A DNA stretch of 57,801 nucleotides, filler included, from Dugesia japonica (Eukaryota): assembly GCA_001938525.1 (NCBI GenBank). It is 5 parts of 5 records of this genome, joined end to end, with 100 filler letters (N's around TTAATTAATTAA, not from the genome) between each part and the next. Parts side by side here need not be neighbours in the genome. Positions count along the whole stretch, not along the records: positions 27,147 to 37,804 come from MQRL01183985.1; 4 more parts are not named here. One strand, written 5' to 3'. The stretch's first letter is position 1. Every line of letters begins with the position of its first letter. Of the stretch, positions 17,833 through 57,801 are shown piece after piece. The notes under the pieces were generated by a model. That model saw only the letters and a program-made list of their open reading frames with translations. It made no database searches and was not told the origin of the DNA. Position numbers and translations under genes: made by a program.

Positions 17833-17932
17833 NNNNNNNNNNNNNNNNNNNNNNNNNNNNNNNNNNNNNNNNNNNNTTAATTAATTAANNNNNNNNNNNN
17901 NNNNNNNNNNNNNNNNNNNNNNNNNNNNNNNN
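17833..17932. other. Artificial contig linker (N-TTAATTAATTAA-N)
   Basis: 100-nt block with a six-frame stop linker; identical blocks at 27047, 37805 and 47756. Confidence 0.97.
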
Positions 17933-24647: not shown

Positions 24648-24911
24648 TTATTCATCCAGTGTGATGGTTTCTTTCGATCTTGTTCTGGCAACTTCCGGTA
24701 CCGAATTGGATGCTTGAGTTAAGGTCCGTACCGTTGCGATCAGCACACTTTCACTGTCCGCATAGGCTTCGTTGATATCCGCCATAGCACGGCAAATTTG
24801 TGATAGTGCGAGATCTCGTTCTTTTAATTTGATTATTTTTTCACGGAGTTGAGCATTTTTCCTTGCAATTCGGTAATTTCCGTCTTTAATCTTTTTTGGG
24901 TCAAACACCAT
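24648..24911 (-). CDS. Orphan coiled-coil protein
   Basis: Open 87 aa from ATG; NYRIARKNAQLREKIIKLKERDLAL helical segment. Confidence 0.45.
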   Translation of the reverse strand: MVFDPKKIKDGNYRIARKNAQLREKIIKLKERDLALSQICRAMADINEAYADSESVLIATVRTLTQASNSVPEVARTRSKETITLDE

Positions 24912-25223
24912 TTTGCCCGTAGGTCTGTGATTGAATTATCTGTAGATCTTTTGGTTTCAGACACTACAATAATCAGATAATAATCAAATAATAAATAATA
25001 ATCAAATTAGTAGTATAATTTACAATTCATTTCAACATCATTTTTAAATTATATTTTGAATAAGTATTGAAATACAACAGCTATCTCGCTCACATTAACT
25101 AAATTGTCAACCTTAAGATTACTGGTATTATTCACGACAACATGGCCGATGTTATTAATTATTATCACTGTAAATAAACAAGTAACTCTTTCAAAGAAAA
25201 CTATATTACAATGCATAACATAA

Positions 25224-25448
25224 TCACACTATGGTTTCCACACTGTTGTCATCCAGTGGTGTTAACACTTGCTGGAGTATTGTTTCGACTTTGTTGTTCA
25301 GCCGTTCCGATAGTTTAGTATATTCGTCGGCCTCCAACTGCGCTGCCCGCAACGTCCGAATCACCTGCTGCTGTTGCTTGGCGAGCTCCATTGATCGGAT
25401 CAGTAGAGATATCAGCTCTTTCTCTCTTTCCTGCTGACACTTGCTCAT
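25224..25448 (-). CDS. Orphan coiled-coil protein
   Basis: Open 74 aa; its ATG overlaps the TGA of the upstream ORF (ATGA). Confidence 0.45.
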   Translation of the reverse strand: MSKCQQEREKELISLLIRSMELAKQQQQVIRTLRAAQLEADEYTKLSERLNNKVETILQQVLTPLDDNSVETIV

Positions 25449-25747
25449 CTCCTCCAGTTGTGTCTGATGCTGTTGATCCTGTTTCTCACTCGTATTTGGA
25501 GAGTATTTATTCTCTGGACCTGCTCGGAGAACTGCGACCGTTGCCGGAGAATTTCCCGCCGCAATTCTTTTATTTCTATATCTTTAGCCCGTAATTGATC
25601 CTGAGAAATCCACCAAGGATCGTTGTCTGTTCCTTCAGTGCCGACAGAGTCCCAGAACGGTGGCATATTATTGCACGCGCTAGTTTCAAATACATAACCA
25701 GTGGGTTCTAGAGTCTGCATCGCCTCTTGTTTAGTGATTGTTGTCAT
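25445..25747 (-). CDS. Orphan protein with Arg-rich coiled-coil C-terminal half
   Basis: Open 100 aa; ATG directly after a CTAG acceptor-like site; GC-richer than flanks. Confidence 0.45.
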   Translation of the reverse strand: MTTITKQEAMQTLEPTGYVFETSACNNMPPFWDSVGTEGTDNDPWWISQDQLRAKDIEIKELRREILRQRSQFSEQVQRINTLQIRVRNRINSIRHNWRR

Positions 25748-26329: not shown

Positions 26330-26750
26330 TTTTCAATTGTCATAGTCAACTCTCTCCCATCATAATCTCTCTCAACAATCTTTCATAATTCATAATATCG
26401 CTTTCAACCATCTTTCATAATGCATAATATTATCTTTCATAACGTAATTNNNNNNNNNNNNNNNNNCTTTCAACCATCTTTCATAATGCATAATATTATC
26501 TTTCATAACGTAATTCCTAATTCGTAATAGCTCTTTCAACCATCTTTCATAATTCCTAATGCATAAGACTATCTTTCATAACATGATTCGTAATTCATAA
26601 AATCTCTTGATCACTCGCATGTCTTTCATAATTCATAATTCATAATAATACTCGCATGTCTTTCATAATTCACAAATCATAATAATACTCGCATGTCTTT
26701 CATAATTCCTAATTCATAATATCTCGACCGTATTTCATGATAAAATTCAT
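26330..26750. repeat. Tandem array of TCTTTCATAATTCATAAT-type units
   Basis: Ten or more TCTTTCATAA cores at 20-40 bp spacing, spanning a small gap. Confidence 0.85.
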
Positions 26751-27046: not shown

Positions 27047-27146
27047 NNNNNNNNNNNNNNNNNNNNNNNNNNNNNNNNNNNNNNNNNNNNTTAATTAATT
27101 AANNNNNNNNNNNNNNNNNNNNNNNNNNNNNNNNNNNNNNNNNNNN
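27047..27146. other. Artificial contig linker
   Basis: N-TTAATTAATTAA-N, 100 nt. Confidence 0.97.
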
Positions 27147-27401
27147 ATATTACACCAATTACAATCGAATATACTGTACCACTGACCTTGAAAATTTCCT
27201 CCCATCACAATCAAGTATACGTAAACACTTTGACCTTGAAAAAAAATTTCCACCAATCACAATCAAGTATACATAAACACTCTAACCTTGAAAAAATTTT
27301 CCTCCAATCACAATCAAGTATACATAAACACTTTGACCTTGAAAAAATTTGACCTTGAGGAGGGGGGAGGGGGTGTTTATGTGCGCTACTATCTATCTAC
27401 T
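27147..27401. mobile_element. Maverick TIR end with roughly 50-bp tandem repeats
   Basis: ACCTTGAAAAAATTTCCTCCAATCACAATCAAGTATACATAAACAC x3-4, then G-runs and GCGCTACTATCTATCTACT. Confidence 0.7.
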
Positions 27402-27677
27402 GTTTTGTGTTTGCATGTTATGTTGTGCAGGTAATTGACTGTTGTTTGTTATGACTTTTGTTTGTATTGTATGTTGTATCAGTGTGGATTGATTATTGTG
27501 GATGCTGGTTGTCTGAATGTTTTCTCTAAAATAAAGGAATAATTAATTATTGATTTTAAGGTCTGGTTAGTCCTATATAGTGCTACAGGTCATAGTAGCG
27601 TGCTATATAAATAAAAATACATATAGATAATAATATAAACTATTAATAGTGAGTTTTTAAAATTTAACGTAGGGTGC

Positions 27678-28527
27678 TTAGACTAATGTCCATTGGATAT
27701 AATTTGGAATTTGTGGGTTATTGCGACGCCAATAATGCTGCTTCTTCCACCTGTATCGCTTATGCATTTGAATTATCATAACTATAAAACCGAGAAGGAA
27801 AAGTAATGCAATCATTCCCAGTATTGAAAAAGGGTCATATAATATTTTAGGATCAAATGGTTTTACTGTTGTTGTAATCCATAGTTGTAGAATTTTATTT
27901 CGTAATTGTTGATAATCTACTTTTGGATTGTCTCGAGAGTTTTCCTTGAACCACTTTAAATGCTTGTGTTTATATTTAATGTTACTTGTTTTATGACACT
28001 ACTTGGTGATGTATTTATATGTAAGGTGCTTGTTTCTCTTTGCTCTGTATATATCGCCTTGTTTGTTGATATCATATTTATGCTCGTTATTTTCTTTGAT
28101 AAAATTTTCTGATTTGATGCGGTTTTAAACACCTTTGTTATTACAACTGGCTCTTCCTTCTCTACTATCCATTGTACTATGATTTGATACCATGTGTCTG
28201 CTTCCAAACCTTGTAGCTGTATCCGACTTATTTCTCGACCAAATTTCTCCTCTATTGATACGTATAAGCCTGTTTCCATAATTAATTTGTTTCTTCTTCT
28301 TGCTGATACTTGTGTTATGTTTTCTATATCATTGTGTGCAATGAAGGTAATTTTATCTGAATATATTGTTCTGGTCAAGTAATTTTGTCCTTTTCTTGTT
28401 GAGCTGAACTTAGTGTTATTAGAGCGAGTACTGTTAATGTCAAGAGTGGTAGAGTATTCTGTGAACTCGATCGACGATTATACTTATGTTGCTTTTGAGG
28501 TTCAATTTCTGCTTCCGCTATTTTACA
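27678..28527 (-). pseudogene. Signal peptide-FN3-like-S/T stalk-TM protein following the Gypsy integrase
   Basis: Integrase frame continues CKIAEA...HKYNRRSSSQNTLPLLTLTVLALITLSSA|QQEK; after a shift IQLQGLEADTWYQIIVQW (FN3 L-x-x-L-x-x-x-T-x-Y), then a Thr/Ser-rich tract; after another shift ILGMIALLFLLGFIVMII-QMHKRYRWKK...TLV*. Confidence 0.65.
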
Positions 28528-31500
28528 TCAATTTACTGCTACAATTATTGGATCATCATTTTTATTTTCTATCACATGTAGACCGGTTGGAGTTACTTTG
28601 ACTACTTCATATGGAACTTTGTAATGTCTCGCCAATTTATTTGTTAATACTTTCTGTGTAACTGGTATTTTTATTCTCACTTTATCTCCAATTTTGAAAT
28701 TATGCTCCTTGGCATTTTTATCATATTGATCTTTGTATTGTTCTTGTTCGAATTTCACTTTTAAATTTTCATGTTTGTATACTTCTTGCAATCTCTCTTG
28801 AATCTTTGTAACATAATCTGGATTATCCATATATTGCGATACAGCCGGTTCAAATGTTACATCTATCAACATATGGTTTTGTCTTAGATACATCAAGTAA
28901 AAATATAAATATCCTGTAGCCTCATTTTCGGTTGTATTATGTATGAATAACTTGGGTTTGATAAAGAGATCACAATCATTTTGATGTTTATTTACGAAAA
29001 CTGCCAATCTATTACATAATATACTGTTAAATCTTTCTACTAATCCATCTGTTTGTGGATGATAGGTCGTTGTATTTATTTTCTTGATATCAAACATACT
29101 TGTTACTTGTTGTATGACTTCATTGAGAAAACTTTTCCCTTTGTCTGATGATAGTTTTTTTCGCGCTCCATATTTGTAAATAATTTTCTCAACTAATAAT
29201 CTTGCTACTGTTTCTGCTGCTTCATCTTTTGTAGGAAATGCTTCTGCAAACTTTGTGAAGTAATTGTTGAATACTAATATGTGTTTATTACCTTTTATGG
29301 TTGTTGGTAATTTGCATGGGAAATCCATTGCGCATGTTTCCATTGGTGAGCTGGGTCTTGGCATGGGCTGCAATGGAACTTTAGTTTTTGTTCCTGTATT
29401 CTTTCTTGTATCACAAACACTATATGCTTGACACCATTTTCTCGCATCATCTTTAATATTGTGCCTATAATACTTTTGCAACAATCTCGACGTGGTTTTT
29501 CTACTTGACAAGTGTTCTCCAAGTGCTCCATCATGGTATTGTAATAGTAATAACTGTTTTAGAGAGTCTGGCTCAATCATTAGATTTTTTCCTAGGTTAT
29601 TGTACATGAGCAGACTTTTATACATTTTATATTTAGTATTCTTTTCTTGAATCATCATCTTTTTAATTTCTTGTATTTTTATCTTTATTTTGTTCTTATA
29701 AAAATGTTTTTGGATTTGTTCAAGTTACAATTGACATAATTTCTAATACATTTATTTCTGAAATTCTGAACAATGAATCTGCATTTCTATTAGCTTTTTC
29801 TGGTTTGTATATAATACGTATGCTCATATCTTGAATTTTCATCGCCCATTTGAGTATTCTACTGGATGCAACCTTATTTTTCCACAAACCTTCTAGTGAT
29901 TTATGATCCGTTCGTATAATTATTTCAGTTCCATATATAAATGGTCTAAACTGCTTTAACGCAAATATGATAGCTAAACATTCCTTTTCGATAATTTAGT
30001 ATCTTGTTTCCGCTGCTTTTAACATTCTTCTTGCATATGCGATGACATAGTCTTTATTTTTCTCGTCTTCTTGCCCGAGTACTGCCCCCATGGCATATTC
30101 GCTTGCATCTGTCATTACTATGAATTGTTTGGTAAAATCTGGGTATCTTAGTATTAGGGTTGTTAACAATCGTTGTTTTAGTGTATTGAAGGCTCCTTGT
30201 TGCTTAGGACCCCATTGAAGTTTTTTGATTTTTCATCTAATTGCTCTACAATCATAACATTTTTGCTTTCACCTTTTGTTTTCACGCCTTTTGTTAATTC
30301 TACTAATGGTGATGCTATCTTTGCAAAGTTTTCTATAAATCTCCGATAATATCTCACTAGACCATTAAATCTTTTTAATTGTTGTACGCATTTTGACACT
30401 GGAAAATCTTGAACTGCTTTCACTTTCTCTGGATTGGGTTCTAATCCTTTTGATGATACAATATGTCCAAGGAATAAAACACTTTCCTTTGCCCATTTAC
30501 ATTTTCTTGGCTTTAATTTGATATTTGCCTTTTTGATTCTGGATAATACATTTTTTATGTTGACTAAATGTTGCTCTAACGATTTGGATGCTATTAATGT
30601 CATATATGTATACCACTACATGTTATACACCTGCTGGTACTGTGTTCATTAATCTTTGGTACGTAGCTGGTGCATTGCATAATCCAAATGATAATCGAAC
30701 AAACTCATATAGTCCACCATCAGTACAAAATGCTGTCTTTATTCGATTCTCTTTCTGTACTGGGATCACATTATAACCTTTATTGGCGTCTAAAATTGCA
30801 AAATACCACGCGTTCATGAGTTTATTGAATTGTTTGTGTATCTTTGGAAATGGATGTGTATCTTTTTTTGTAGCTTCATTAAGTTTTCTGTAATCTATAC
30901 ACATTCGAATTTCTCCATCTTTCTTTTTAACTGGTACTATTGGTGATGCCCCTTGACAAAAAACTATTTTGTATGATTCCATTAGGTTTGTTTTCCTCTA
31001 CTTGTCTTTTTATTTCTGGTTTCAACGCATATGGTGCTACATATGGTTGTTGTTTTAAAAGCCTCGTATCGCATGTGTCAATCATATGTTTTATAATATT
31101 TGTTCCTCCCATATCGAATTCATGCTTGGCAAATGCATCCTCATATTTATCCTATAATTTCTGTAATTGTTGTTTTTGACTCACTGTAATATCTTTGTTC
31201 GTTATCTTTGTTTTCTCATATTACTTAGTTTGTTTGGATTTTATGAGTTCTGTGTCAATTAATTTTCCAATTTTGCTTTGCTGATCTAAAATAAATTCAA
31301 ATAAATCATGACTACTTAACTGACTTGTCATTTTGCTTGTTTTTTTTGCGATCTCACAATGTTGTGATATGGTGTATCTGGATAATTAGGTGAAAATAGT
31401 TTATTCAGTAACTGCATGTTTGTTTTCCTTGGTTGTTTCTCAATTACAATTTCATATATCTCATATCCACTACCGTTTTCAAATAATCTTCCTAATTTTG

Positions 31501-32201
31501 TTCCTTTCTTCAGTGTCATATCGTAATTATTAACGTTTGTTATTCTCATTGGTATTGTACCTTTTTTCGGTTCTACAAATCCATACATTATTGATAAATA
31601 ATGTTTTGATGTTAGTTCGGTTCAAAAATATATGAATCTTTGCTTTGAAATTCTGTGTTAATGGGTATTATACATTCACTACAATGTTCTATCGTTATTA
31701 ATTCTGTTGCAAATACATCATAATATTTAGTTTGTACTAGTAACGGAGTTACCATTTTTAGTGTACTGTCTTGTAAGTCGATGACATAACCCTTTAATCT
31801 TGCAAGAAAATCCATGCTTGAAATGCTATTTTGTGTTCCATTTTCCATTACTCTAAACAATTTCTTATCTGATTGTGACTGTACATTCAATTATTCTTTT
31901 TGTTTTTATTATATGATCTGTAAATGATTTTATACCTTCTGGTTTATAATTTTTATGTTTTGTTTTTGTGACTCTTTTATTATTGAGCTTCTGTATCTGT
32001 TAGTGAAGGTATATTGATTCCGTTTACTATGATGTCTCTTGTTGGTCGATTATTTTCTGAGTCTATAACTACTATTTGATAATTTTTTTGATATTTGTAT
32101 TGTGATTGATCATCTATTTTTATATGTTTTAATTCGATACTTTCATGTTCATATGGTTTATATTCATTATCTGACGACGTGTAATTCTTGTCATTAGTCA
32201 T
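28528..32201 (-). mobile_element. Ty3/Gypsy family A pol (PR-RT-RNase H-INT), disrupted
   Basis: PR IVNGINIPSLTDTEAQ; RT SPIVPVKKKDGEIRMCIDYRKLN, GLYEFVRLSFGLCNAPATYQRLM; RH VMTDASEYAMGAVL; INT HHCC zinc finger, SDKGKSF, YHPQTDGLVERFN. Confidence 0.95.
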
Positions 32202-32253
32202 TTATCTAATTCTTGTTCATCATTCATGTTTACTGTGTTTCTTTAGATTTTTT

Positions 32254-34005
32254 TTAACTATGGTTTTGCACAATCACATGTTTTGCGATGAATAAACAGA
32301 AAGATGCTCCTAATTTCCAAGTGTAACCAAAACCTGCATGTAATTATCTTAAAGAAAGAAGTTGATGATCCGTTAATTTTAAGAATCTTAATACATACCA
32401 CCCAAATAAAATACATGAGAATATTACATTAACCATTACATTCGCTCCAAGAATCTATCTTAAAAATGACGCATTGTCCTTTTAAAATGATCTACGTGCA
32501 ATAGTGACTCAAAATTTACATCATTTCCAGTACTCCCTTTTACTACTTTGTCAACCATTATGGATATTATCTTTTCTCTTTGTATTGGGAAAAGCATATG
32601 TTTACTTACTTTCTCAATATTATTGATAGTGTGAATTCCAAGATTTTTCATGTTGTCAATTCTCTCCATTTCGGTTGTTCTCTGAGTTTTATCATTTCCA
32701 TTATGAAGGGAATTGGTGCTGTCTTTCTATTTGATACTGTTATCCATACTTTGTCCGTATTTTATACATAGGTTCAAGAACGTTACTACACTTTCCAATT
32801 ACATTTGGTTGATAATGTTTATCTGTTAATATTCTTGCTATTGCGAGTAAAAATACCTTTTCTCCTTTATAGATTACTGGTAATTCATTAGTGCATTTCT
32901 CATAATCTGGGAGAGTAACTGCTACTGGTTTGCATCTAAAACTTACCAAAGTTTCTCCCACTATTCTTTCAAATGTACCTTTTCTTCGAGCAAGAGTGCT
33001 ACAACCAAATCAGGTTTTGTGACTTCCATTGCCATTTTTGTTCTTAACAATTCTCGGTAAATTTTACATTCTTTCATGACGGTTTCCTGATATTTTCTGT
33101 CTATTTGTCTTAATATTTCATGATATAGGAAATCAATTTTGTTGTTTAAGTAGGCAGCTATTTTCACATTTAATTTATCTACTTCTGGTCTGGCATCTTT
33201 AATTTCCGTTGTTGATAAATATAGACCATTGTAATTGGTTATTTTTACCGCCACGCCACATTTGGTGTCTACTCCTTTTCCAATAAATCTTAGCGCTTCT
33301 TGTGTTGAAATTGATATATATATATATATATATTTGGTGTTGCCTTTTCATTGATTACTGTTGTTTTCCTTTTTTTATCTCGAATATTAGGTGGCTTATC
33401 CTTTGGTTGAGTTCCATTAATTTCTTTCATTGCCACTGTTCTTAATTTTGTGAGTGTACATTCAAACGGATTTATTTTGTATGTGATCATGGACTCTCCG
33501 GTATCAAAATTTGTATCTTTTGAGCTACAAAATGGATATGTCATCATCTTTCCAGTACCAGCGTCGAATGTTGCTTTTATTTTCTTTAATTCGACATGAT
33601 ATCAGTTTTTACTTGTCATCATATTTTATAGCTTCCTCCTCCACAATATCCAATTGCTGTGAACAATCCTACGATGTCTACTTTTTGTTTCACTATTGTA
33701 CCTACTTTTACTTGTAACTCATTACCATGTACTTTTAGCGTTTTTGTTTTAAATGCCTTTTCACAATCACTTGCATCTATTATTACTATGTCTGGAGACC
33801 AAGCTGGTATTAGTGGTATTATTTGTGTACTATCACAATATGATACTTATTCTTTAAACTTTACACTACATTCATATGCAACTGCGTGTAAAAAATCAGA
33901 TTCTTGATACAAATGAATAATTGTTGGATTTGATATTTTCATTTTTGTAGGATGCGCTTCTGGAAAATTATCTACATCTAATAGTGAATATTTTTTTGCC
34001 CCATT
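32254..34005 (-). pseudogene. env-like glycoprotein, chuvirus G / class III fusogen type, disrupted
   Basis: YSLLDVD, HLYQES...AYECSV...SYC, YLNNKIDFLY, ECKIYRELL...PDL, GETLVSFRCKPVAV...CTNELPV...RIL...C...PMYKI, TM NVIFSCILFGWYVL, LHAGFGYTWKL follow the motif order I recall for chuviral glycoproteins. Confidence 0.78.
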
Positions 34006-34029
34006 TTAGAGTATTCCTCTTGATTTGAT

Positions 34030-36807
34030 AGGGTCTCTCATAAAACTCTTGATTCTTGTTTCAGCTTTCACTAAGACCATATCACTGACTCCAATTGTCT
34101 TTTGGTTAGTATATCTTCATCTTGCTCTTTGTGCACTCTTTGAGCATTTGCTTCGCACACTTTTCTATGCTTATTTTCTTCCCAAATACGATTTCAACAG
34201 GGCTTTTCCCGATAGTATTCTGTTTTGTAGCATTCAAGGTAAATTCTATCTCTGGCAATACATTCGCATAATCCGAGGTTTTTCTTTCTTCAAGTTTCGC
34301 ATTTATCATATCTGGCATAGTTATAAACTGTCTTTCAATTTGGCCATTTGTGTTATGATGATATGGACTCAAAACCCTGAGGGTAATTCCATGTCTAGCT
34401 GCAAAATATTTCATTGATTTAGAATCATATGCTCTTCCACAATCAACTCGAATTTCTCTCGGACACCCGAACTTTAATATCTACTTCTCCATAATTGCTT
34501 TCGGTTTTGTATCTTCATCTTGTCTTGTCATTGCAACCAAGGCTACATATTTACTGCATTCTTGCTGGTTGTCTCATTTTTGTTTCTTCCTTTGTTTTGT
34601 TTGGTTTTCTGGCATGTTATACAGCTTCGAACAACCCCTTGTACTTTGCTCCACAAATGTTCCCCTTTATATTTACATTTGTATAAAAATACATTATATA
34701 TATTTTATCTTATTTTAATTTATCCGAAATTTTATTAACGTCAAATTTAAAAATACATTAGATATATTTTGTCTTATTTTAATTTATCCACAGTTTATTA
34801 AATTTCCAATTAAAAAATACATTATATATATTTTATCTTATTTTTTTATTTAAATATTTAAACAAACTGATACATTAAAAATATTTGTTAAAATACATCA
34901 TATATATTTTGTCTTATTTTCTTATTTAAATATTTAAAAAACTGATTTCAATAAATTCTAACTCAAAATACAAAAAATTAAATCTGCTTTTAAAAAATAC
35001 CTTTCGTGATCCATATGCAATTAATTTTTCTTGTCCATTGTTGTCAATTTGAGACAGTTCTACACCAATCGTGTCGAAACTCGCATCCGTGTCAAAAAAA
35101 TTCTCTATTTATATCTGGAAAACATAATATTGAAAACATCATTAGCGCTTCTTTCATTCCATTAAAAACTTCTTCTAATTCGTTCACCCATCCAATTTTC
35201 TTGTTACTTGGTCACTACATAGTTGTTCCAGCAATCTGGCTTTTTTCGAATAATCTTTAATAAACTTGCGATAGCAATTGAAAATTCCCCAAAAGCTTCT
35301 CATCTTCTTAACGCATGTTGGTTTACCAAAGTTCTGAATTGCTTCTATTTTAGTTTGATCGGATTTGACACCTTCTTTACTGAAACCATGTCCAAAAATT
35401 TGATCTCCTTTCGCATGAATTGACATTTCTCCGGGTTAACTCTTAAAACAGCATTCTTAATTTCTGTCAATACTTTACTGACTATATCATAGTATTGCTT
35501 CTTTGTTTCGGTAAATATGAGAATCTCGTCTAGATAAATCATCACTCCTTTTATTTTCCTGATCACTTTATTCATCATTTCCTGGAACGTACCTGGTGCT
35601 GCTGCAATTCCAAAAGGCATTTTACTGAAACAATATTGTCCTTGTTTGGTCGAAAAAGCCTTCTTCTCTTGAGAATTTTCACTGAGTTCTACTTGATATT
35701 ATGCATTTCCCCAGTCAATTGAGCTAAAATACTGTGTACATTCCAAAGCATCCAGCATTTCGTCCACATTTAGCATATAAAAAGATTGTCTTTCTGTTAT
35801 TGCATTGAGCTGTCTAAAGTCTAAGCATAATCATATATCCTTTTTTTCCTTTTTCAAAACGCAGATTAATGGCATATTTCATTGAGAATTACACTTCCAC
35901 ATGATACCGCTATCATACAGATTCTTGGTGGCCTCTTCAATCTTCTCTTCTAAATTCATTAGTTGACGATACAATTTCATGTTGATTGGACCTCCATTAG
36001 TGATTATTTGATGCTTCGTTAAATGTGTGCATCCAATGTCTCATTTTACCACACCCTAAACATTTTGGTGATTTCTTGTCTGGACAAATTCTACTTAAAT
36101 GCCCTTTCTTGTGGCAAGTCCAACATTCAAAGAGTGAACTTTTCAGATACTCTTTTTTTGTATGCCCATAACTCTGGCATGTCCAACACTGTGGTTCTGT
36201 TCTTTTCGTAACTCTTTCGATATTTGGTCTTCTCTCTTCGATACGTTCTCTACGTGTTACACCCACGTAACTCTTTACTACGTTAATAGTTTCTCTTTTT
36301 TCTATTTTTTCCACCAATGATAGTGTTTCTTATATATTTTCTACTTTTTCCAATTTTTGCAAGACTATTTCCTCTTCTGTCTTTTTTACTATCTGCCCAA
36401 AATATTAGCATTTTTGACAAGAGGTTTTCTTTCGTCAGCTCTCCGTTTGCTAAAGATTTATCGACCAAATCTTCCACTTTTTTAAAGAACACCTCAAGTT
36501 TTTCACCACCACGACGATAGCTTACAAGATTCTGAAAATCTTTTATTACATCTCTCTTGCTCTCAAAAGCTAATCGCAATCTCACTTAATATCCGTTCGC
36601 TTTCTTCAATGTTTTTACATATGTTTCCATTAAATCTTCATCAAGCATACATGTTATCATGCGCTACTGATCTTACTTAATAACGATGTTCTTTGCCTCG
36701 AAGTATATTTCACACCGTTTAAAAAACTTCTTTAGATCATTGCTTCTGCAAAATATCTTTGGCAACAATTTCTCTGTGATTGCATCGGTGTTTACCGCTG
36801 CCACCAT
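34030..36807 (-). mobile_element. Ty3/Gypsy family B (gag with CCHC knuckles, RT, partial RH, INT), disrupted
   Basis: gag MVAAVNTDAITEKLLPKIFC, CWTCHKKGHLSRIC; RT MPFGIAAAPGTFQ...YLDEILIF; INT SPYHHNTNGQIERQF. AT-rich repeat insertion at about 34680-35000. Confidence 0.92.
36794..36806 (-). promoter_or_regulatory. Primer-binding site TGGTGGCAGCGGT (tRNA-Leu-like)
   Basis: Complementary to a tRNA 3' end ACCGCUGCCACCA; sits at the 5' end of gag. A decayed copy follows ...AACA at 46057. Confidence 0.7.
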
Positions 36808-36809
36808 TT

Positions 36810-37804
36810 GAAACACTCATCACTTACAGCATTTTTATCGATGAACAACTTTTTAAACAAAAAAGTAGTCTCGCAATGGGTAACAATTTGTCTCCTATTT
36901 TAGCGATAATTTTTATGAACTTTATTGAAAATAAAATTGTTCTCAAAGCTAAGAAGAAGAAACATCTTTGGGTCAGTAATATAGATGATATTTTCTTTAT
37001 TACTAATTCTCCTTTAAAAATATTGTGGAACTAGCGAATAGTATTAATAATAACATCAAATTAACTTAAGAGAAGTCAGTCGACTTTCAGATTCATTTTC
37101 TGGACACCTTAATCCAAAAGAAACTTGGTGAAGTATTAACTAACCAGTTAAATATGAAACAATTATACAGTGAACAGCTATTACCCTGGAGTAGTAATAC
37201 TACCATCAGACAGAAAATTGGAATAATCAAGTGTAAAAGATTATAAGAGCTGAAAGACTATTTATAAATGAAGAAATAAGATTGACTTCACTCAGGTTGA
37301 TTAAAAAATAAAATTTCTATATAATGGTTACCCAATCGTATCTAAATATTTATCCTCAAATACAAAATTTAATAAAATCAAACAAAAGACAAACACAATA
37401 ATTAAAAGACCTTTTATTAATGAGAAATGTAGCCAAATCATGGAAAATATAATTTAAAAATCAAAACTCAAACACAATCCGAGAATTATATTTAAAACTC
37501 AAGCACTTTTGGGTATCCAATTACAGAAACCAAGACAGAACTTTCGTGGTTCCACATGCATTTGTGATGGTAGAAATATATGCAATTAAAAAAATATCAC
37601 TTAAAAAATAACATAAACCTTATGTAAGGATACATATATAGGAGAAACATGCAGAGCCATCCGTACAAGAATTAAAGAACATCTCAAACAGAAAGAAAGT
37701 GAAGTCTTCAAATTCTTTCAACAGAAACATAATATTTTACCAGAAAAATATCATATTACATGGAAAACATTAGGAACAGGCTACATTTCTACACTTCACA
37801 GAAA
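36810..37804 (+). mobile_element. Penelope-like element family 2 (RT + GIY-YIG), 5'-truncated
   Basis: LAMGNNLSPILAIIFM, NIDDIF, FLDT; YIGETCRAIRTRIKEHL. Confidence 0.9.
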
Positions 37805-37904
37805 NNNNNNNNNNNNNNNNNNNNNNNNNNNNNNNNNNNNNNNNNNNNTTAATTAATTAANNNNNNNNNNNNNNNNNNNNNNNNNNNNNNNNNNNNNNNN
37901 NNNN
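37805..37904. other. Artificial contig linker
   Basis: N-TTAATTAATTAA-N, 100 nt. Confidence 0.97.
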
Positions 37905-38159: not shown

Positions 38160-38545
38160 ACTGATCTGCATTTCAATGCAACTCCCCTTTTCGATATTCC
38201 ATTTTCATGTCCAAACTGCTCAAAAATTTAAGCCGTGTTTGACACTGTGGCGTTACCGGTTTTATTGTATTTGTCATAAACATAATTGCTTTATGATCCT
38301 TTTTAATCAAAAATTTCCTTTCATATAAATACTGCCTAAAATGTTGAGTAAAATAATAAATAGCCAACAATTTGTACCTAGTTATGCAATACCCTAACTC
38401 GTATTTGGTCATCAGCTTAAATTCATAAGCAATAACACGTTCGAATCCGTGATCATAGCTTTGTGATAAAACTATACCTATTGTGTCCAATCTTGCATCA
38501 GTATTTAAAATTAAATACACAATAATTCCTCCAAAACTCAAAATT
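38160..38545 (-). mobile_element. Gypsy RNase H fragment
   Basis: ILNTDA...IGIVLSQ...ERVIAY...YCITRYKLLAI...FRQYL...DHKAI...YRKGELH. Confidence 0.88.
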
Positions 38546-38989
38546 GGAGTGATTTTGTCTGATGATTACGGTTTCTCCGCCAAAATATGTAACAATTAAG
38601 TCTTATTTTAAATGGAGTTATTTATATTCTAATATCTTCTTTATGTTTCTTCAATATACACATAAGCGGACTATTCCATTTCGATTTACATTTCTTTATA
38701 ATTTATAATTTTTTACGTTACAGTAAATATTTACAGAGAAAAAAAGTAATGCACTAAAAAGATCTACAATTTAACAAATACAATATGAATAAATTACAAA
38801 TAAATTTAGAAAATCTTTTTTGGCTCTGATACAAAAATTACAATTGACTAATTAATTAATTATCTTTAATTTTTAGCTTTTAAAAATTTCGCCTATCATA
38901 AATTCCTTACAATGATAATAATAATAATGATAATAATAATGATAATAATAATATTAATAATAATAATAATAATAGTAATAATAATAATT

Positions 38990-40395: not shown

Positions 40396-40904
40396 TATTG
40401 TTGTTAATATGATCTTGGGGCACAGGAAATTGTCCGGGAGAGTAGTTAATTATTCAGGATATAAATTAACTATCTGGGATAGCAGGTGAAGCATAATTCG
40501 GCTTGATTTAAACAAAAATCATCAAACGCCCTTGATGTAAACAAATTAAAATTTCCGATCGATTGCGAAATAATTTTGTAATTTTTACGTATTATCATAT
40601 TGATAGCATCTTATCACAATGTTATGTATTACGTAATAAGCTAAACTCATCTTGATTGGCTGGCGAAAGGGGATTCTAACTAACTCTCTGATATCTACAA
40701 CTAAATTTTAATTTTTAGGAATAATTTTTACTTTTTCATTAAACGTTTTTGTAGATTAAATGAATGAAAACTGAATTTAAAAATTATTCTATACCTAATC
40801 AATGTCTAATTCAAATAAATGAGTTTCATTGGATGATAAATAATTGGATGAAATACAATTAACTATTAAAGATATTTGACATTTCATATTTTTTATTGTA
40901 ATCC

Positions 40905-41954
40905 ATGTCTTTACTTTGCTTAAATAATACGGAAAATGAAACATTTTATTTCAAGTCCAGTAAAGTAATTTTAATGATGTCGGAAATTTATCATGTTCAT
41001 CATCCGATTATCTCTCTTTCTTCATTGAGTATTGGTTTGATTTTATCAATTTTCAATATTGTTATTCTCAATATTAAAAATATGTTAACTCCAACCACGT
41101 ACATGTTAACACGAATCGGTATTATGGATATTTTTACAATGGTGATTTATATTCCTTATGTGCTGTATTTCCATGTTTTTAATCCGTGTGATATTTATCG
41201 TGGAATTGTAAAAAAATGGGCTGCGTATTTTTTATTTGTTTATATCATTATTGTTAACCTTAGCCATTGTACTAGTATTTGGCTCGCTATAATGCTGTCG
41301 GGATTTAGACTTCGGTGTTTAAGGCAATTAAATTTCAATATTGTTTCAGCTTGGAAACAAGTCAAATTTTTATCATGGATAGTTTTGATAGTCACTTGTT
41401 TCATAAGTGTTTTGAATTATTTCACGATCAACTTGGTAAAATATAAGGATCCGAGTTATGGAACAATTTATTCCATTAAAATGTCTAAACATTACTTAAT
41501 TGGTATACAAGCATTGATTATTAAACTTTTACCATCAATCATTCTTACGATTCTAGCGGGAGCAATAACTTATGAGTTAAAGAGATTTATACGATTGGGA
41601 AAATGTATTGGTAAACAAAGACATATAAGCAATACAACATACACTCTGATTGCTTTAGTACTTTTATTTATTTTCCTCGAATCTCCACAAGGCATAATAA
41701 TATTTATCAGTTCATTTGATATGTTGTTTTTTAATGAAATCTACAATCCGTTAGGAGATATGTTAGATCTCATGACAATTATTCGAACTATTGCCAATTT
41801 CTGTATGTATTGCATCATGGATAGACGATATCGGAATATATTTGTCAATATCATTTGTCCTTTTAGAAAACTCAAAACTCAAGAAAAGGATTACGCTCTT
41901 TATCCATTATGTAAAAGGAAATTCAGTTTACCGAATTGTAAAATGAATAAATAA
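40905..41954 (+). CDS. Rhodopsin-family peptide GPCR, DMSR/myosuppressin-receptor-like, intact single exon
   Basis: 349 aa with seven hydrophobic segments; TPTTYML...DIFTMVIYIPY, HCTSIWLAIMLSGFR, TTYTLIALVLLFIFLESPQGI, LGDMLDL, NFCMYCIMDRRYR. Confidence 0.92.
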   Translation: MSLLCLNNTENETFYFKSSKVILMMSEIYHVHHPIISLSSLSIGLILSIFNIVILNIKNMLTPTTYMLTRIGIMDIFTMVIYIPYVLYFHVFNPCDIYRGIVKKWAAYFLFVYIIIVNLSHCTSIWLAIMLSGFRLRCLRQLNFNIVSAWKQVKFLSWIVLIVTCFISVLNYFTINLVKYKDPSYGTIYSIKMSKHYLIGIQALIIKLLPSIILTILAGAITYELKRFIRLGKCIGKQRHISNTTYTLIALVLLFIFLESPQGIIIFISSFDMLFFNEIYNPLGDMLDLMTIIRTIANFCMYCIMDRRYRNIFVNIICPFRKLKTQEKDYALYPLCKRKFSLPNCKMNK

Positions 41955-45762: not shown

Positions 45763-46890
45763 GTTTAAATTTTGTATTTTGTGTTTTGGGTTGTGAGAAC
45801 TATTTGAAATTGCTTGAATTGATCAGTTGAAATTTTTAGAAACTTGTAATTATTATTTTTTTATTGCAGTTGTAATTTATTTGGTTCATGTTAGAATTTA
45901 TTTAAATAAACTTTGTATTAAATTGTTAATTCTTTGGTATTTATTAATCTTTCTAAAAGTATAATTTTCAAACCTTTATTATTATATTTAATAACTATAT
46001 TTATTATTTCATGAGTAAATCAGAAGAAATTTTAGGGAGTTTAGGTTATCCTAACATGAGGGCAGTGGTAAACACCGACACGATTACCGAACGTCTGCTT
46101 GTAAAAATATTTCCCAAAGGTTACAATATTGAGCGTTTTATTAAGAGATGTGAGATATTTTTTTATGCAAAGAGAATTTTTCAGAAAAAAGACCAAGAAA
46201 GATTAGTCGGTCGTATGCGGGAAAGTCGGTCATATTAGAAGATAGTGCCCAGAGAGGTGATGTAACTGTGGGAACCATCGGACGAAGAATTGTTACGGAA
46301 ATACTGGAAGACGACAAATGGGGATAGAATAGAAATAAATGAACAGAGGTGACGATATAATCAGTTAAACATGATTGAAGAAGAAAACAGGAGAAAGGAA
46401 CGACAGTTTGATAGAGAATCCGAAGAGGAAAAATAGGAAAACCTGTCCAAAACAAATGAGCTCCGCCAGTAGATGAGTTGGTTGGAACCGTATATTAATA
46501 GAAAGACCGGTTGAGTGTCCTCAGGTAGCAGAGAAGTTGGAGAATGTTGGCAAAGTGGGGAGAAGGTTTATTGGTTTATGAAGAGAAGGAATTTTGTTAG
46601 TGAGGATGAAGTTGAGATAGTGGGGGCCATAGAAGAGGGACAAAAATTATAATAGGTTATAATAGGTTTCAAGGTAGACCTGGTGTCGATGTGTATTCAT
46701 GGATATAGAAACACTTCAGTTGTGATTACTAACAGAGAATTCAAAGTGTGCGATTTTGTACTCATCAAAGTAGAAACAAGAAATAAAATTCAAGACAGAT
46801 CTTGTCTAGTAAATGAGAAAATTCACGAAAGACTGTTTGCAGTACAAAGAGAAAATGGACAGGGATAAGAAAGAAATGTGGAAAATTTGT
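45763..46890 (+). mobile_element. Gypsy family B: LTR part, PBS, gag start and INT C-terminus; internally deleted
   Basis: 45765-46018 is similar to 48175-48423; MRAVVNTDTITERLLVKIF; FKVCDFVLIKVETRNK...RNVENL. Confidence 0.85.
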
Positions 46891-47755: not shown

Positions 47756-47855
47756 NNNNNNNNNNNNNNNNNNNNNNNNNNNNNNNNNNNNNNNNNNNNT
47801 TAATTAATTAANNNNNNNNNNNNNNNNNNNNNNNNNNNNNNNNNNNNNNNNNNNN
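47756..47855. other. Artificial contig linker
   Basis: N-TTAATTAATTAA-N, 100 nt. Confidence 0.97.
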
Positions 47856-48129: not shown

Positions 48130-49118
48130 TAAGGAATTTATGATGGGGAATTTTTTTTAGGAAGTTCTGGTTTGTTTAAATTTTGTGTTTTGGTGCAGAA
48201 GAAGATTTTTGAATTTGCGAAAATTATTTGAAAATTGTATTTTTTTGTTATTGCAGTTGTATTGAATTTTTTTTATTCAATTGTATTGAAGCAGGTTAGC
48301 ATTTATTTAAATAAACTTTTGTATTAAATTGTTAATTCTTTGATATTTATTAATCTGTTTAAAAGTATATTTGTCAAAGTTTTATTGTTATAGTTAATAA
48401 TTATATAATTACTTCATGAGTAATTACTCAATAACCGAACGTCTGCTTCCAAAAATATTTTGCAAAGGTGACGATATTGAGCTTTTTATTAAGAGATGTG
48501 AGCTATATTTTGATGCAAAGGGAATTTGTCAGAAAAAAGACCAAGAACGGTTAATTTTATGCTTATTGGATGAAGATTTAGTAGAAGAATACGTTAAGAA
48601 AGCGAAGAAAACAGAGGGGTTTCAGTCCCGTTTGCGTCTGGCTTTTGAAACAGATAAAGACAGTAGAAGATTTACAGAATTTTTTCAATTTTAAACGAAG
48701 AAACGTGGAAGTGGCATCATATATAAAGAAAGTAGAAAATTTGGTAGGAAAAATATTTGATAATAAAGAGTTTACAAAGGAACAGTATATTGCCAAAATG
48801 CTTGTTTTTGGTGCTGAAAATAGGAAGATAGAAGAAGAAGTAGTGATGAGATAACTAGAAACATTAGAAGAAATTAAAGAAACATTATTTTGTTGGATCG
48901 AGTAGAGCAGAAAAGGGAACAAGTTAACCTATTACGCAGTTATGCGATAATTGTAAGTACACAACGAGCGTAACCGAGAGAGTTTAGAGATGCCAGACAA
49001 CGGAATAGAAGTGAAGACAAAAGAGCAAGAAAATGTTGAATATGCCATAAAGTTGGTCATTGAAGAGAGCATTTTTCTGTGAAAGAAGTACAGGAATGTT
49101 GGTCGTGTCAGACGTACG
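48130..49118 (+). mobile_element. Gypsy family B LTR part and gag, cut at the zinc knuckles
   Basis: ITERLLPKIFCKGDDIELFIKRCELYF...RLRLAFE...; CWSCQTY immediately before Penelope sequence. Confidence 0.88.
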
Positions 49119-49119
49119 A

Positions 49120-51560
49120 TACAAACTTTCATTTTCTTATTATGGAAATTGATAACAACATTGAAGACATTCAATTTAAACTATTAAAAACATATAAGAA
49201 CAACAAGAATAACAATAAAAAGTGTAATGAAAATCAGATTATTAAAGAAATTATAAATTTAAAATCAATTATCATTACACTAACAGATAAAAAAACTAAT
49301 TGGTAGCTCTTTCTGAACAAACATACAATGAATATTTTTCTGAACATTTAAATAATTATGAAACAGAACCTCACAAAACCAACTACAGAAGAAATAAGAT
49401 TCAATAAACAACTAATTCAAATAGCAGAAAAATATGAAGACCCAGTAAAATCTTTACTTTTAAAAGTCAAATGTCATGAGCCAGTTTTATTCTCAATGTA
49501 TTGTGTTCCGAAAGTCCACAAAACTACAATGAAAGAAAAATCTATGATCATCGCTTCTGATACTCCTTCAATTGCATTATGCAAATTTTTGGCAGATATA
49601 TTAAAATCACTATTACGTTTCATTCCGACACATTTAGAGAATAGTTACGAATTTATCGAACGAATTAAAAATTATGACCGGAAGAGTGATGATAAATTTG
49701 GATTGTAAGATAGTTTTTGAAAGCAATTTTAAATTTTTTATATATCGAGACGAAATTATTAAAATTATTTTGTTAAATATTTTTAATTAAATCATAAAAG
49801 AAATTTGTGAAATAAACATAGCATTTTATGTATTTAAATGTTCACGAACAACTCAACTTTCAATTTATTTATTGTAGTAAATTTTAAAATAAATTATTTA
49901 AATATATTATTTTGTAATTTTATTTAATCAAAATATTTCAAGAATAGGAATTTTTAAATTTATAATTTGTTGATAACTTTAAAAATTTGTAATTTACAGT
50001 GTATATTTAAAAGTTATAATTCGTAGTCATAAATAATATAAATGCTCGAAATTATTAAATTTTTGATATAAATTTAATTTACTTTAAAACATTTTGTTAT
50101 GGTATTTTGAAATTTTATTTAAAATATATTTTGATAAACTAATTTTTTTATTTTAAATTCTTGGTTAAAAAATTTTTAAATTTGTTTGAAAAGACAAATT
50201 TATATATGGTGTTTTTGTTTTGTCTTGAATAAATATTGGAAAGATAAATCTATATAGATCAATTTTAATTGAAGGATCTGAAAATGTCATTGATATTATA
50301 AATGACTTCTTTGAAAGATACAAAGAACACACAGATATTCCAGAGATCACCAAAAATGATTTCAAATGTTTTATTAATTTGTGTTTCTTCTCTGATAGCA
50401 TTTTTTAGGTGAAGAACTTTTTAAATAAAAAGATCGTCTCGCAATGGGTAACAATGTATCTTCAATTCTAGTGATAATTTTTATGAACTTCATTGAAAAT
50501 CAAATAATTCTTAAATCAGACAAGAAAATTTATGTATGGTTTAGATACATCAACGATGATATTTTCTTTGTAACTAATTCTCTTTTAGAGAAAATTTTAG
50601 AGTTAGCCAATAGTATAAATGATAATATTAAATTCACTTTAGAGAAATAAATTGACTTTCAGATTTCTTTTTTGACACTTTAGTCCAAACGAAACCTGGT
50701 GAAATATTAAGTACCCAATTGTATATGAAACCATTTCACAGTATACATATATTACCTTGAAGTAGTAATACTACCATCAGTCAGAAAATTGGTAGAATTA
50801 AAGGTGAAAGAATTCGAGTTGATAGACTATATTCAAATGAAGAAATAAAATTGATTTCTCTCAAGTTGAAAAAAATGAATTTTTAAATAACGGCTGCCCA
50901 AATAAAGTTATATCAAAATATTTATCTTTGAATAAAAAATATAATAAAATCAAACCAAAAACAAACACAGTTATTAAATTACCTTTTATTAATGTAAACA
51001 TGTATGTAGTCAAATCATGAAAAATATAATAAAGAATTCTAAACTAAAACACAATCCAAGAATTATACTCAAAACACAAACACCTTTGNGCATCCAATTA
51101 CAGAAACCAAGACAAAATTTTTGTGGTCCCAAATGCATTTGTGATGGTAGAAATATATGCAATAAGAAAAAATTCACTTATAAAATAACATGCACCATTA
51201 GTAAATAATCATATATAGGTGAAACAGGCAGAATCTTCCGAACATCTAAAACAAAAAGAAAGTGAAGTCTTCAAACGCTTTCAACACAAACATAAAATTT
51301 CACAAGAACAACAGCACATTACATGGAAAACACTAGGAACAGCCTATTCACAGGAAAAAACGTGAAGAATTACAAATTTAACAAGACAATTCTAAAATCA
51401 ATGTAATTAATAATAATTAAATAATTAAAATTTAAAAAAATTAAAATTCAGTAAAATAAATTAATTCAAAAATAAATTTGATCGAAGTTGTTTTTAATGA
51501 AATTTCAAAAAACAATCAATGGTTACATCGAACAATTATTCTCGCCATAATTGTAATTAA
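49120..51560 (+). mobile_element. Penelope-like element family 2 (RT + GIY-YIG) with an AT-rich insertion at about 49710-50230
   Basis: MYCVPKVHK, HLENSYEFI, MGNNVSS...WFRYINDDIF, YIGETGR; colinear with 36810-37804. Confidence 0.9.
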
Positions 51561-53419: not shown

Positions 53420-54900
53420 TCACTGACGAATATCTTTCTTGTCCTTTTTCCAATGCATACTAGATGAGCAGTCCAAGGAGAATTATACTTTCTAATAATG
53501 CCATTCTCGAATAAATTTTGAATCACCTACTCAATTTCTTTTTTCAGCTGAAACGGCATTTTATATGGTTTCACATTGATGGATTCTCGTTTTGTTACAA
53601 TTCTATGTTTTACTAAATGAATCTGTCTTACTTGATACATGGAAACATAAAACGTTTTCCAGATTTTGACATATTTCTTTTTTTTCTTTCTCTTTTGACA
53701 TACCGATCATGTGTAATGCTATTTCCTATCTTTTATCTTCCTCTATTTTACAAAATTTGGACTTTATATTATCCATTATTTCTTTTCATCCTGTTTTTCC
53801 ATTGCTTTATTACCCGCTAAAGCTGAAATTCAAAAATATTTTGAAAATTTATTCCCTTGATAATATCTGGAAATACATTTTCAACTACCACAAATTCCAC
53901 TTCCATGATCATTTCTATTAACTGTACTTTTAAAGTATTTTATCCGTTGTTTCCAACGAACTACCATTTGTACAACATAAGTTATTCTCACCAGATTACG
54001 GCCGAATTCCCGACCACTTACTCAAACATTTATCATTTACCACGTTAATATGAACTCCCATATATTACAATCCACTTCCTTAATTTGGGGGCAAACTGTT
54101 ACACTTGACCTGTCTTTCGGCCAGTCAAAAAAATTTCACCTGTTTTTTTATTTTTATGAATATTCTCACCAATTCTACTTCATAAGCCTCTTGAAACTTC
54201 AGAAACCGATACACTTTCTCAAACACTTTCTCTTTGCTTTCCTATTTATCTGCGCCTTAAAGATATTCTCTATCTGCCAACATTATTGAGCAGCTTTATC
54301 AATTTCCCTCTTGTTGAAGTCTCTATTTGGGTATAATGTCTTCCATCCTGTTTCCTCAATCTTAACATTTTTCTGTTCATTCACTTCTTCCGCTAGCATA
54401 GTATTGAAATTAATTGTATCAATTTCTATGCTCTTTTCCCGCTCCGTTCCTTTTGCTCACTTGGTCTCATTTTCCATTCTCAAGATAATACTTTGCTCTG
54501 TCTCAATCTATCACATCGAAAACAATTCAATTTTGTACAGCTGCGTCTCAAATGGCCTGACTCACCACACGCAGCATATGTCCCTTACTTTCTTACTGAA
54601 AAACTTTTACGTAATCGTCTCTTTATATGACACTCCCAGCACTCTTTTGTCTCACCTCTGGATATTTTTTGGACAAACATATCAATCTCCATACTTTTAC
54701 TCTTGAATGTTACCAATTTCTTAATTTTTTTAATGTCTTTTTTTCTTTTTGGAATGGTAAACGTAATTTTACCTGAAAATCCGAGACTTTATCCGCAGTA
54801 TTTAAATATTTCTCGATTAAATTAACTTCCCAAAAACTTGAAAACAGTTTTTCTAATTCTTTTTGGTTGCTGATTCCTCAGGATCCAAAATATAATTCAC
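53420..54900 (-). mobile_element. Gypsy family C remnant (gag knuckles to RT start)
   Basis: CGESGHLRRSC...CFRC; KPYKMPFQLKKEIE*VIQNLFENGIIRKYNSPW. Confidence 0.75.
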
Positions 54901-56804: not shown

Positions 56805-57801
56805 ATCCTTTGAATGGTCTGGCCAGTTTGTTTGTTAAACCTGTTTTTTGAATTTGGAGTCTTTATTCGCACTTTATCTCCAACTTTAAATTGATGTGGT
56901 TTCTCACTTTTGTCATAGTAATCTTTGTATTGTTGTTGTTTGAATTTTATTCTCAATCCAGCTTGTTTATACACTTCCTGTAATCTTTCCTGCATTTTCG
57001 TGACATAATCCGATTGTCCATGTGTTGTGATACAATAGGCTCGAATGTAACATTTATCGTATTGTGATTTTCTCTCAGGTACATTAAGTAGAATGGTGAA
57101 TATCCAGTTGCTTCGTTTTCTCTTGTATTATGAGCAAATAATGCTGGTTTAATAAATAAATCCCAATAACTTTGATTTTTGTTGACAAATACTGATAGTC
57201 TGTTACATAGTGTACTATTAAATCTTTTCACAAGACCGTCTGTCTGTGGGTGGTATGCTGAAGTATTTATTTTTTGAATATTAAACATTTCATTGACTCT
57301 TTTAACTGTTTCACTTAAGAAATTTCTACCTCGGTCTGATAATAATTTTTTGGGTGCTCCATATTTAAAAATAATTCTTTCTACAAACAACTTTGCAACT
57401 GTTTCCGCTGATTCATCTTTGGTGAGAAATGCTTCGACCCACTTCGTAAAATAATCGCTAAATACCCAAATATGTTTATTACCTTTTATTGTAGTTGATA
57501 ATTTGCTTAGGAAATCCATAGCACATATCTCCATTGGTGAACTAAGTATTGACATTGGATGGAGTGGTACTTTTGTTTATGTTCCAGTGTTCTTTCTGGT
57601 TGCACATATTGAACAAGCTTTTGCACCATTGTTTTACATCTTCTTGTAAGTTTTGTCAATAATATTTTTGTAAAATTCTAGATGCTGTTTTTCTACTTGA
57701 CAAGTGTCCGCCAAGAGCACTATAATGATATTGAAGAAGTAACATCTGCTTTAATGAATCAGGGACAACCCATAAATATTTTCCCATATTGTCATATACA
57801 A
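56805..57801 (-). mobile_element. Second Gypsy family A integrase copy, truncated at the GPY/F region
   Basis: Colinear with 28528..29658 (DYFTKWVEAF, SDRGRNF, YHPQTDGLVKRFN, FKVGDKVRIKTP). Confidence 0.93.

Follow-up and report, generated by a model that had tools for sequence, protein, structure and literature searches.

The window, the whole stretch of Dugesia japonica DNA analysed (57,801 nucleotides, filler included; assembly GCA_001938525.1), is AT-rich animal DNA. The element described here resides on the minus strand of a single gap-free contig (27147-37804, 10.6 kb), next to the remains of a second gypsy element; the two families are called A and B. Their parts, in the direction of reading, and a second family A fragment are the following.

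36000-36800, minus strand: gag of the family B gypsy, an unrelated broken element (zf-CCHC, E 1e-4)
34938-36040, minus strand: family B RT and RNase H fragment (RVT_1, E 2e-24; tblastn)
34684-34946, no strand: 64-bp AT-rich tandem repeat within family B pol
34015-34680, minus strand: family B integrase, cut right after a GPY-like motif (rve, E 5e-6)
34003-34015, no strand: secondary joint of family B integrase and family A env (truncated on both sides; composition step; step in RNA and DNA depth)
32254-34002, minus strand: family A env of the gB/chuvirus class III type, broken (PF24664; colinear with residues 1304-1896 of the relative P0128)
32265-32440, minus strand: env transmembrane helix and subsequent amphipathic stretch (sequence; alignment to a relative)
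31740-32253, minus strand: acidic linker and single aspartic protease, broken (clade protease profile, 42 bits for the C-terminal part and 5 bits for the catalytic motif)
31480-31740, minus strand: dUTPase-like remnant between protease and RT (a clade profile matches the window)
29730-31250, minus strand: RT and RNase H, broken (RVT_1; RT_RNaseH, E 4e-35)
28528-29724, minus strand: integrase, open piece of 398 aa (Integrase_H2C2, rve; within the env-polyprotein clade, SH-aLRT 100)
28402-28455, minus strand: internal signal-peptide-like stretch in the integrase frame (hydropathy 2.2; same position in relatives)
28109-28396, minus strand: FN3-like ectodomain (clade profile; Atlas 0.86, a lead only)
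27835-28108, minus strand: Ser/Thr-rich stalk with an internal frame change (sequence)
27678-27830, minus strand: TM helix, then a short cytoplasmic tail that closes with T-L-V-stop, of the class I PDZ-binding type (hydropathy 3.2; C-terminus)
56806-57801, minus strand: second family A integrase fragment, truncated, without tail, running off the window edge (DNA identity 72% over 978 nt; sister of the first in the tree)

Family A runs env, protease (PR), dUTPase-like domain, RT, RNase H (RH) and integrase (IN), and then a signal-like stretch, an FN3-like ORF, a stalk, a TM and a tail. Minus-strand domain matches and ORFs bear out the order proposed earlier from the sequence alone (env-PR-RT-RH-INT, followed by signal peptide, FN3 and TM), and the PR-RT-RH-IN order of pol is that of Ty3/gypsy elements (Metaviridae). 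The stretch from 34002 to 27678 is very probably what is left, on the 3' side, of a Burro-like Ty3/gypsy element in decay, a GAG-ENV-POL errantivirus, which lost its 5' half at the joint with the family B gypsy. The element is called Burro-like because its relatives carry ubiquitin-like, Bcl-2-like and ankyrin modules, the profile of the domain behind PR is dUTPase-like, and its env resembles that of Smed_errantivirus_3. The window copy is dead, being broken at many sites and devoid of gag. It has no ankyrin, and its spacer and LTRs appear to be lost. No PPT-like run of at least 11 purines was found in 27147-27680; the 5' half is gone, and an N gap occupies 27047-27146. By itself, the locus is ordinary transposon debris.

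Tandem repeats lie behind the polyprotein end at 27183-27350 (periods 51-52) and 26365-26721 (periods 32-73); tandem repeats are also marked in Burro figures, according to a legend in PMC6431247. Downstream of the element, past these two arrays and the N gap, three GC-richer coiled-coil-like ORFs of 95-119 aa (24648-25747, minus strand) match no family and are unlike the accessory ORFs of the relatives. A single-exon ORF of 350 aa (40902-41954, plus strand; 7TM_GPCR_Srw, E 3.7e-17) looks intact and is likely a host gene. Two copies, 79% identical, of an RT-bearing fragment of the non-LTR or Penelope-like type were recognized by eye from ORFs at 36817-37783, where the fragment adjoins the family B gag on the opposite strand, and at 50386-51346. 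Isolated gypsy RNase H and RT fragments reside at 38164-38559 and 53431-53652, both on the minus strand. The identical 100-bp spacers at 17833-17932, 27047-27146, 37805-37904 and 47756-47855 (44 N, 12-bp stop linker, 44 N) are joins, not biology.

Pfam PF24664 (Monjiviricetes_fusion) matches env in two frames translated with stops as X (E 1.4e-20 and 2.4e-13), and an intact relative covers the gene in seven tblastn pieces (combined E 1.6e-64), separated by six frame changes and holding three stops. The Env of P0128 matches PF24664 at E 1e-91, and by homology the window env would encode a class III fusogen. Domains I-II, aligned by eye to the available sequence of Smed_errantivirus_3, share 50 of 105 and 34 of 65 residues with it (about 50%); the matching N-terminal piece is 31-38% identical to the metagenomic relatives. 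A PDB sequence search with the env of a relative gave nothing meaningful (best E 0.045, unrelated), and none of 272 candidates was retained as a homologue of a 128-aa env piece among longer proteins. The hydrophobic env C-terminus spans approximately 32440-32265 and the env frame stops at 32256-32254, where the sequence-only reading had placed the end of TM and tail. The same reading had protease sequence beginning within about 50 bp: an open piece does start 53 bp after the env stop (32201), but the protease domain proper is found about 200 bp after env (~32050-32090). Neither an LTR nor gag was seen between env and PR on the same strand, as had been noted. About 70 residues of env tail precede a single PR in the window, whereas relatives have a longer env tail and at least two PR domains before RT.

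The PR region (31740-32253) gave no Pfam match, and its catalytic motif is degenerate (DTE, versus DTG in relatives). When the post-PR profile, window included, was compared with the PDB, dUTPases filled the top 10 of 12 rows at E 0.05-2.2, a weak but uniform signal. The integrase frame is closed by a stop at 28530.

An integrase search among longer proteins gave 177 matches, the best 120 of which are listed; the top 11 are set apart (42-49% identity, 327-384 bits, the next match having 247 bits). P0128, from the cluster of one of these top matches, is a single Gag-Env-Pol ORF of 3735 aa made up of a Ty3 capsid-like Gag, CCHC, spacer, signal, PF24664 Env, PR, RT, RH, IN, signal, ectodomain, TM and tail. 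The window follows it colinearly between residues 1304 (33996) and 3296 (28468). Each intact relative consists of one ORF, 3400-4050 aa long. It opens with Gag, a spacer (which in some is ubiquitin-like or Bcl-2-like), signal, Env and TM; PR(s), dUTPase-like domain, RT, RH and IN come next, and then a signal, one or more FN3 domains, stalk, TM and tail. The lineage is not devoid of gag, as the window copy had suggested: gag lies upstream of env in intact relatives, and its absence here probably reflects the 5' half lost at 34010. Ubiquitin-like modules were found in P0129 and L005, a Bcl-2-like module in P0130 (E 0.0015), and ankyrins in P0005, P0129, P0130 and L003. BIR and MATH modules were not matched in relatives, and the cargo-carrying region is missing from the window copy. 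No LTR pair was found in the six relative loci examined, which may be incomplete. A scan of IMG/VR gave 12 loci, every one distant (21-27%).

Some relatives differ in protease number: P0003, P0005, P0134, P0135, P0139, L007 and L008 have 2-4 aspartic-protease domains per polyprotein, one often directly after integrase. Separate ORFs lie downstream of the polyprotein in L001 (9043-10371), L003 (8592-9920), L005 (12085-13470), L008 (10617-12104), L002 (3712-5556) and L004 (2684-4135), encoding a DEDDh-type exonuclease (RNase_T) in five loci and a RING finger in one. None of the 10 accessory ORFs tested had a match in the window.

Env ahead of pol is the native order of the family A element, and the env is not family B's. 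An env-region search with P0128 as query, restricted to proteins of 2054-6537 aa, a range which favours fused forms and excludes stand-alone env ORFs but in which env-after-IN fusions could have shown, returned 11 further proteins. Env precedes PR in the same ORF in all 12 env polyproteins, P0128 included; 10 reach IN, and none has env after IN. Among 28 metagenome loci fetched by integrase alignment, env was matched in two, both times upstream of PR (ORFs of 3703 and 3426 aa; L005 and P0131 are the same element), and no env was found behind IN in the seven clade loci having at least 3.8 kb there. A quick ML tree built from 57 integrases, with SH-aLRT as the sole support measure, places both window family A copies within the env-polyprotein clade (29 rows, SH-aLRT 100), and family B IN lies outside it on a very long branch. 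Among the joints shown (best 15 of 500), contigs from other copies connect the end of env with the pre-PR linker (32298-32198), or env with RT over a deletion (32503-30783), each with one contig in each of three contig runs. Env ahead of pol stands as a feature of the lineage, as proposed, on colinearity with P0128, the 12 polyproteins and the IN clade. Relatives show env fused in frame to PR, and IN to the tail; the window copy itself is broken at both places (stops at 32254 and 28530).

It had been cautioned that env might be the 3' env of family B, in which case its joint with PR would be a chance neighbourhood. The family B integrase adjoins env on the same strand at 34010, and gag-pol-env is the common order according to the available text of PMC13524379, yet this is extremely unlikely. 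Both sides of 34010 are cut: family B integrase lacks a C-terminal stretch that the B-like copy at 46700-46890 has, as judged by eye, and env lacks its first 7-10 mature residues and, since matches start at mature residue 8-11 in 12 of 12 relatives, its signal peptide as well. Sense-strand G in env (0.176) is like that of family A (0.167, p 0.43) and unlike that of family B (0.217, p 0.001). Depth was taken from one RNA run (X10) and three contig runs, each of a different study, aligned to the window at 80% likeness; it also sets env with family A, RNA depth going from ~230 to ~9 across the joint (34057). In a 553-nt X5 contig of another copy, which lies on env (33572-33942), the first 170 letters are not on family B IN. 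As 3759 of the 4586 X10 reads are less than 90% alike to the window, these reads come from other copies and are uninformative on expression of the window locus. Env precedes PR in every env relative found, and in S. mediterranea 830 POL and 253 ENV are entered under ENV-POL, versus 0 and 4 under POL-ENV, in the accessible part of supplement 6 of PMC13524379. The 34010 joint is secondary, whether due to deletion, recombination or misassembly, because both the end of the B integrase and the env leader are cut. The 5' halves of nine relatives have no match in the window, consistent with loss of gag at the joint. An assembly chimera of two repeats, in place of a genomic deletion, is unlikely, and would alter the history of the locus and leave the design of the element unchanged. 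High-copy repeats flank the joint on both sides, gaps in the scaffold are many, and among the matches listed (best 24 of more than 125,000 pieces) no contig bridges either 34010 or the env-PR joint at the locus. The joint, however, is inside one gap-free 10.6-kb contig, and deleted derivatives are common, both in the window (46078-46890) and among the joints in contig runs. The sequence at 46078-46890 (plus strand) is a family B-like internally deleted derivative, in which the gag start is joined to the integrase end; a family B-like gag fragment is found at 48426-49111 (plus strand).

An X5 contig matches 27913-28456 letter for letter, and the FN3-like ORF is therefore not an assembly error. 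Pol continues in frame into the signal, TM and tail in nine of the ten complete env-pol polyproteins, which upholds the earlier proposal of a separate FN3-type membrane protein after integrase. Two hydrophobic stretches behind IN were seen in one of the 109 more distant Pol matches listed, and that one features a rhabdovirus-type glycoprotein domain. An FN3 seven-strand sandwich is shown, by modelling, for the clade domain of L005: the alignment-backed model (13 rows) shows seven strands at pLDDT 83 and is superimposed on fibronectin FN3 with Z 11.0 and rmsd 2.1 over 87 aligned residues (Foldseek probability 1.0). The P0004 domain has an Atlas value of 0.93. For the window's own ORF the FN3 fold is weakly indicated. 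A clade profile built without the window, the training domains of which were picked with the motif already known from the window, ranks it first of 897 ORFs at 11-13 bits (1000 shuffles reach at most 8.2). The ORF has no Pfam fn3 match, and its single-sequence fold (pLDDT 43) gave no match in Foldseek. Searched against the full library (1.84 billion representatives), the ORF found no close homologue and two matches, both repeat proteins, namely a protein of FN3 repeats (E 6e-6 for its eight repeats combined) and a low-complexity repeat.

The C-terminus [ST]-x-[VILF] is a class I PDZ-binding motif. Such an end is found in 18 of 24 clade tails with TM, missing in the other 6, and found in 3 of 109 other Pol C-termini listed; the internal rate is 4%. 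The 24 tails are related rows, which makes p-values overstated; two duplicates were dropped, and P0006, P0012, P0137, P0130 and P0138 omitted as truncated or tail-less. The module varies among members. The TM tail is missing from P0137 and P0012, and the ectodomain of L007 and P0013 is Cys-rich and not FN3. P0011 and L008 have a second signal-FN3-TM module upstream of PR, and some members extra proteases or ankyrins before the signal. The ectodomain is variable (25-27% column identity). Depth is near single-copy over 28034-28350, and multi-copy in IN and in the TM bin, a pattern which fits either a fast-changing ectodomain or a rare variant. It is very unlikely that the ORFs behind the integrase are a piece of host sequence without function, captured at this one locus. 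The near single-copy depth of the FN3 bin and the lack of a close homologue in the full library are in line with it; the signal to TM layout in frame with IN, the multi-copy TM bin and a PDZ-type end kept across unalignable tails argue against it. The post-integrase FN3-TM-PDZ module seems conserved and undescribed. In the literature searched no published description of a signal-FN3-TM-PDZ module was found; the original Burro/Repbase descriptions and figures may show one.

Burro/GYPSM1 are giant gypsy elements of dugesiid planarians, reportedly described by Grohme in 2018. The env-before-pol order, regarded as new in the sequence-only reading, is already known: in the accessible texts it is published for planarian Burro, where gag, env and pol follow one another in a single reading frame (PMC6431247), and for errantiviruses of the GAG-ENV-POL order with gB-type env from flatworms, nematodes and bryozoans, six S. 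mediterranea elements among them (PMC13524379). Burro, as described in the part of PMC6431247 available, resembles the relatives in having an Env homologous to mononegavirus fusion glycoproteins, an in-frame gag-env-pol ORF (4900-5100 aa in Burro) and ubiquitin/SUMO-like, BCL2-like and ankyrin cargo, and resembles the window element in the dUTPase-like domain between PR and RT; decaying Burro fragments are reported there for Dugesia japonica. Burro exceeds 30 kb and has long LTRs, and the window element is likened to Burro1-4 by description, not by sequence. The same part of PMC6431247 describes no post-integrase signal-FN3-TM-PDZ module, and the words "fibronectin" and "FN3" are absent from it. 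Smed_errantivirus_1-6 share gene order and env type with the window element, which is in contrast defective and 5'-truncated; in the main text of PMC13524379, as far as available, "fibronectin" is absent and the integrase C-terminal extensions discussed are chromodomains. Mosquito BEL/Pao elements with a chuvirus-like glycoprotein (Dezordi 2020, cited in PMC13524379) are LTR elements with a class III glycoprotein of the same Pfam type, but have a BEL/Pao backbone and insect hosts, whereas the window element has the Ty3/gypsy order PR-RT-RH-IN. The post-integrase FN3-TM-PDZ module is, apparently, the novelty.

In the relatives, paired signal and TM segments surround each extracellular module of the one ORF. 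Such a polyprotein would pass in and out of the ER membrane while it is being translated, and each pair of signal and TM would place one module, Env or the FN3 protein, in the lumen. Gag-spacer and IN would be freed by signal peptidase, and the protease of the element would release the parts, the extra protease domains possibly cutting at membrane-bound joints. Env, by homology, would form a trimeric class III fusogen. Pol would be cytosolic, tethered behind the Env TM and later freed by PR, and could in this way reach budding sites without a Gag-Pol frameshift. The last product would be a type I membrane protein, the free C-terminus of which may bind host PDZ scaffolds; its place at the polyprotein end would be explained because a PDZ ligand needs a free C-terminus. 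The topology alters if the second hydrophobic Env stretch crosses the membrane.

The likeliest role of the FN3 protein, though a tentative one, would be to dock on PDZ scaffolds of the host, at junctions or in polarised membrane, and there to set the site of particle assembly or of cell-to-cell passage. By analogy with gD/gB or G/F pairs, the FN3-TM protein could conceivably be a particle attachment protein paired with Env, as the sequence-only reading proposed, a doubtful role to which type I topology, production from the same ORF as Env and hence at 1:1 in relatives, and the high variability expected of a receptor-facing ectodomain all lend themselves. The most conserved feature is, however, the cytoplasmic PDZ-type end; in some members the ectodomain is Cys-rich, and others carry one more module ahead of PR (P0011, L008) or lack the module altogether; given the conserved C-terminus, a role at the membrane of the producing cell seems at least as likely as attachment. 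PDZ ligands are common in viral accessory proteins. A host-manipulating accessory, either a receptor decoy or a junction/signalling modulator, with no part in particle assembly, is somewhat unlikely: the clade is rich in cargo modules (ubiquitin-, Bcl-2-, ankyrin-, RING- and exonuclease-like) and the fold matches include cytokine-receptor and adhesion FN3 domains, but these matches are generic (7-20% identity) and indicate no specific pathway. Junction targeting, particle attachment and host modulation are mutually compatible, not exclusive.

Docking on PDZ scaffolds leads to a wider picture, itself rather doubtful, in which a gB-type fusogen and a fast-evolving FN3-PDZ protein, made as one ER-threaded polyprotein, might serve as a two-component system for entry or junction-targeted transfer, with Pol carried on the Env anchor and not on Gag. 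Such a system is so far undescribed for Ty3/gypsy elements in the literature searched. Burro elements are abundant in planarians, and are activated in specific tissues upon SMEDWI-2 loss, according to the available text of PMC8532177. A possible surface protein directed to junction or polarity scaffolds would provide a testable handle on the intercellular movement of envelope-bearing retroelements, and on why the loss of silencing harms tissues.
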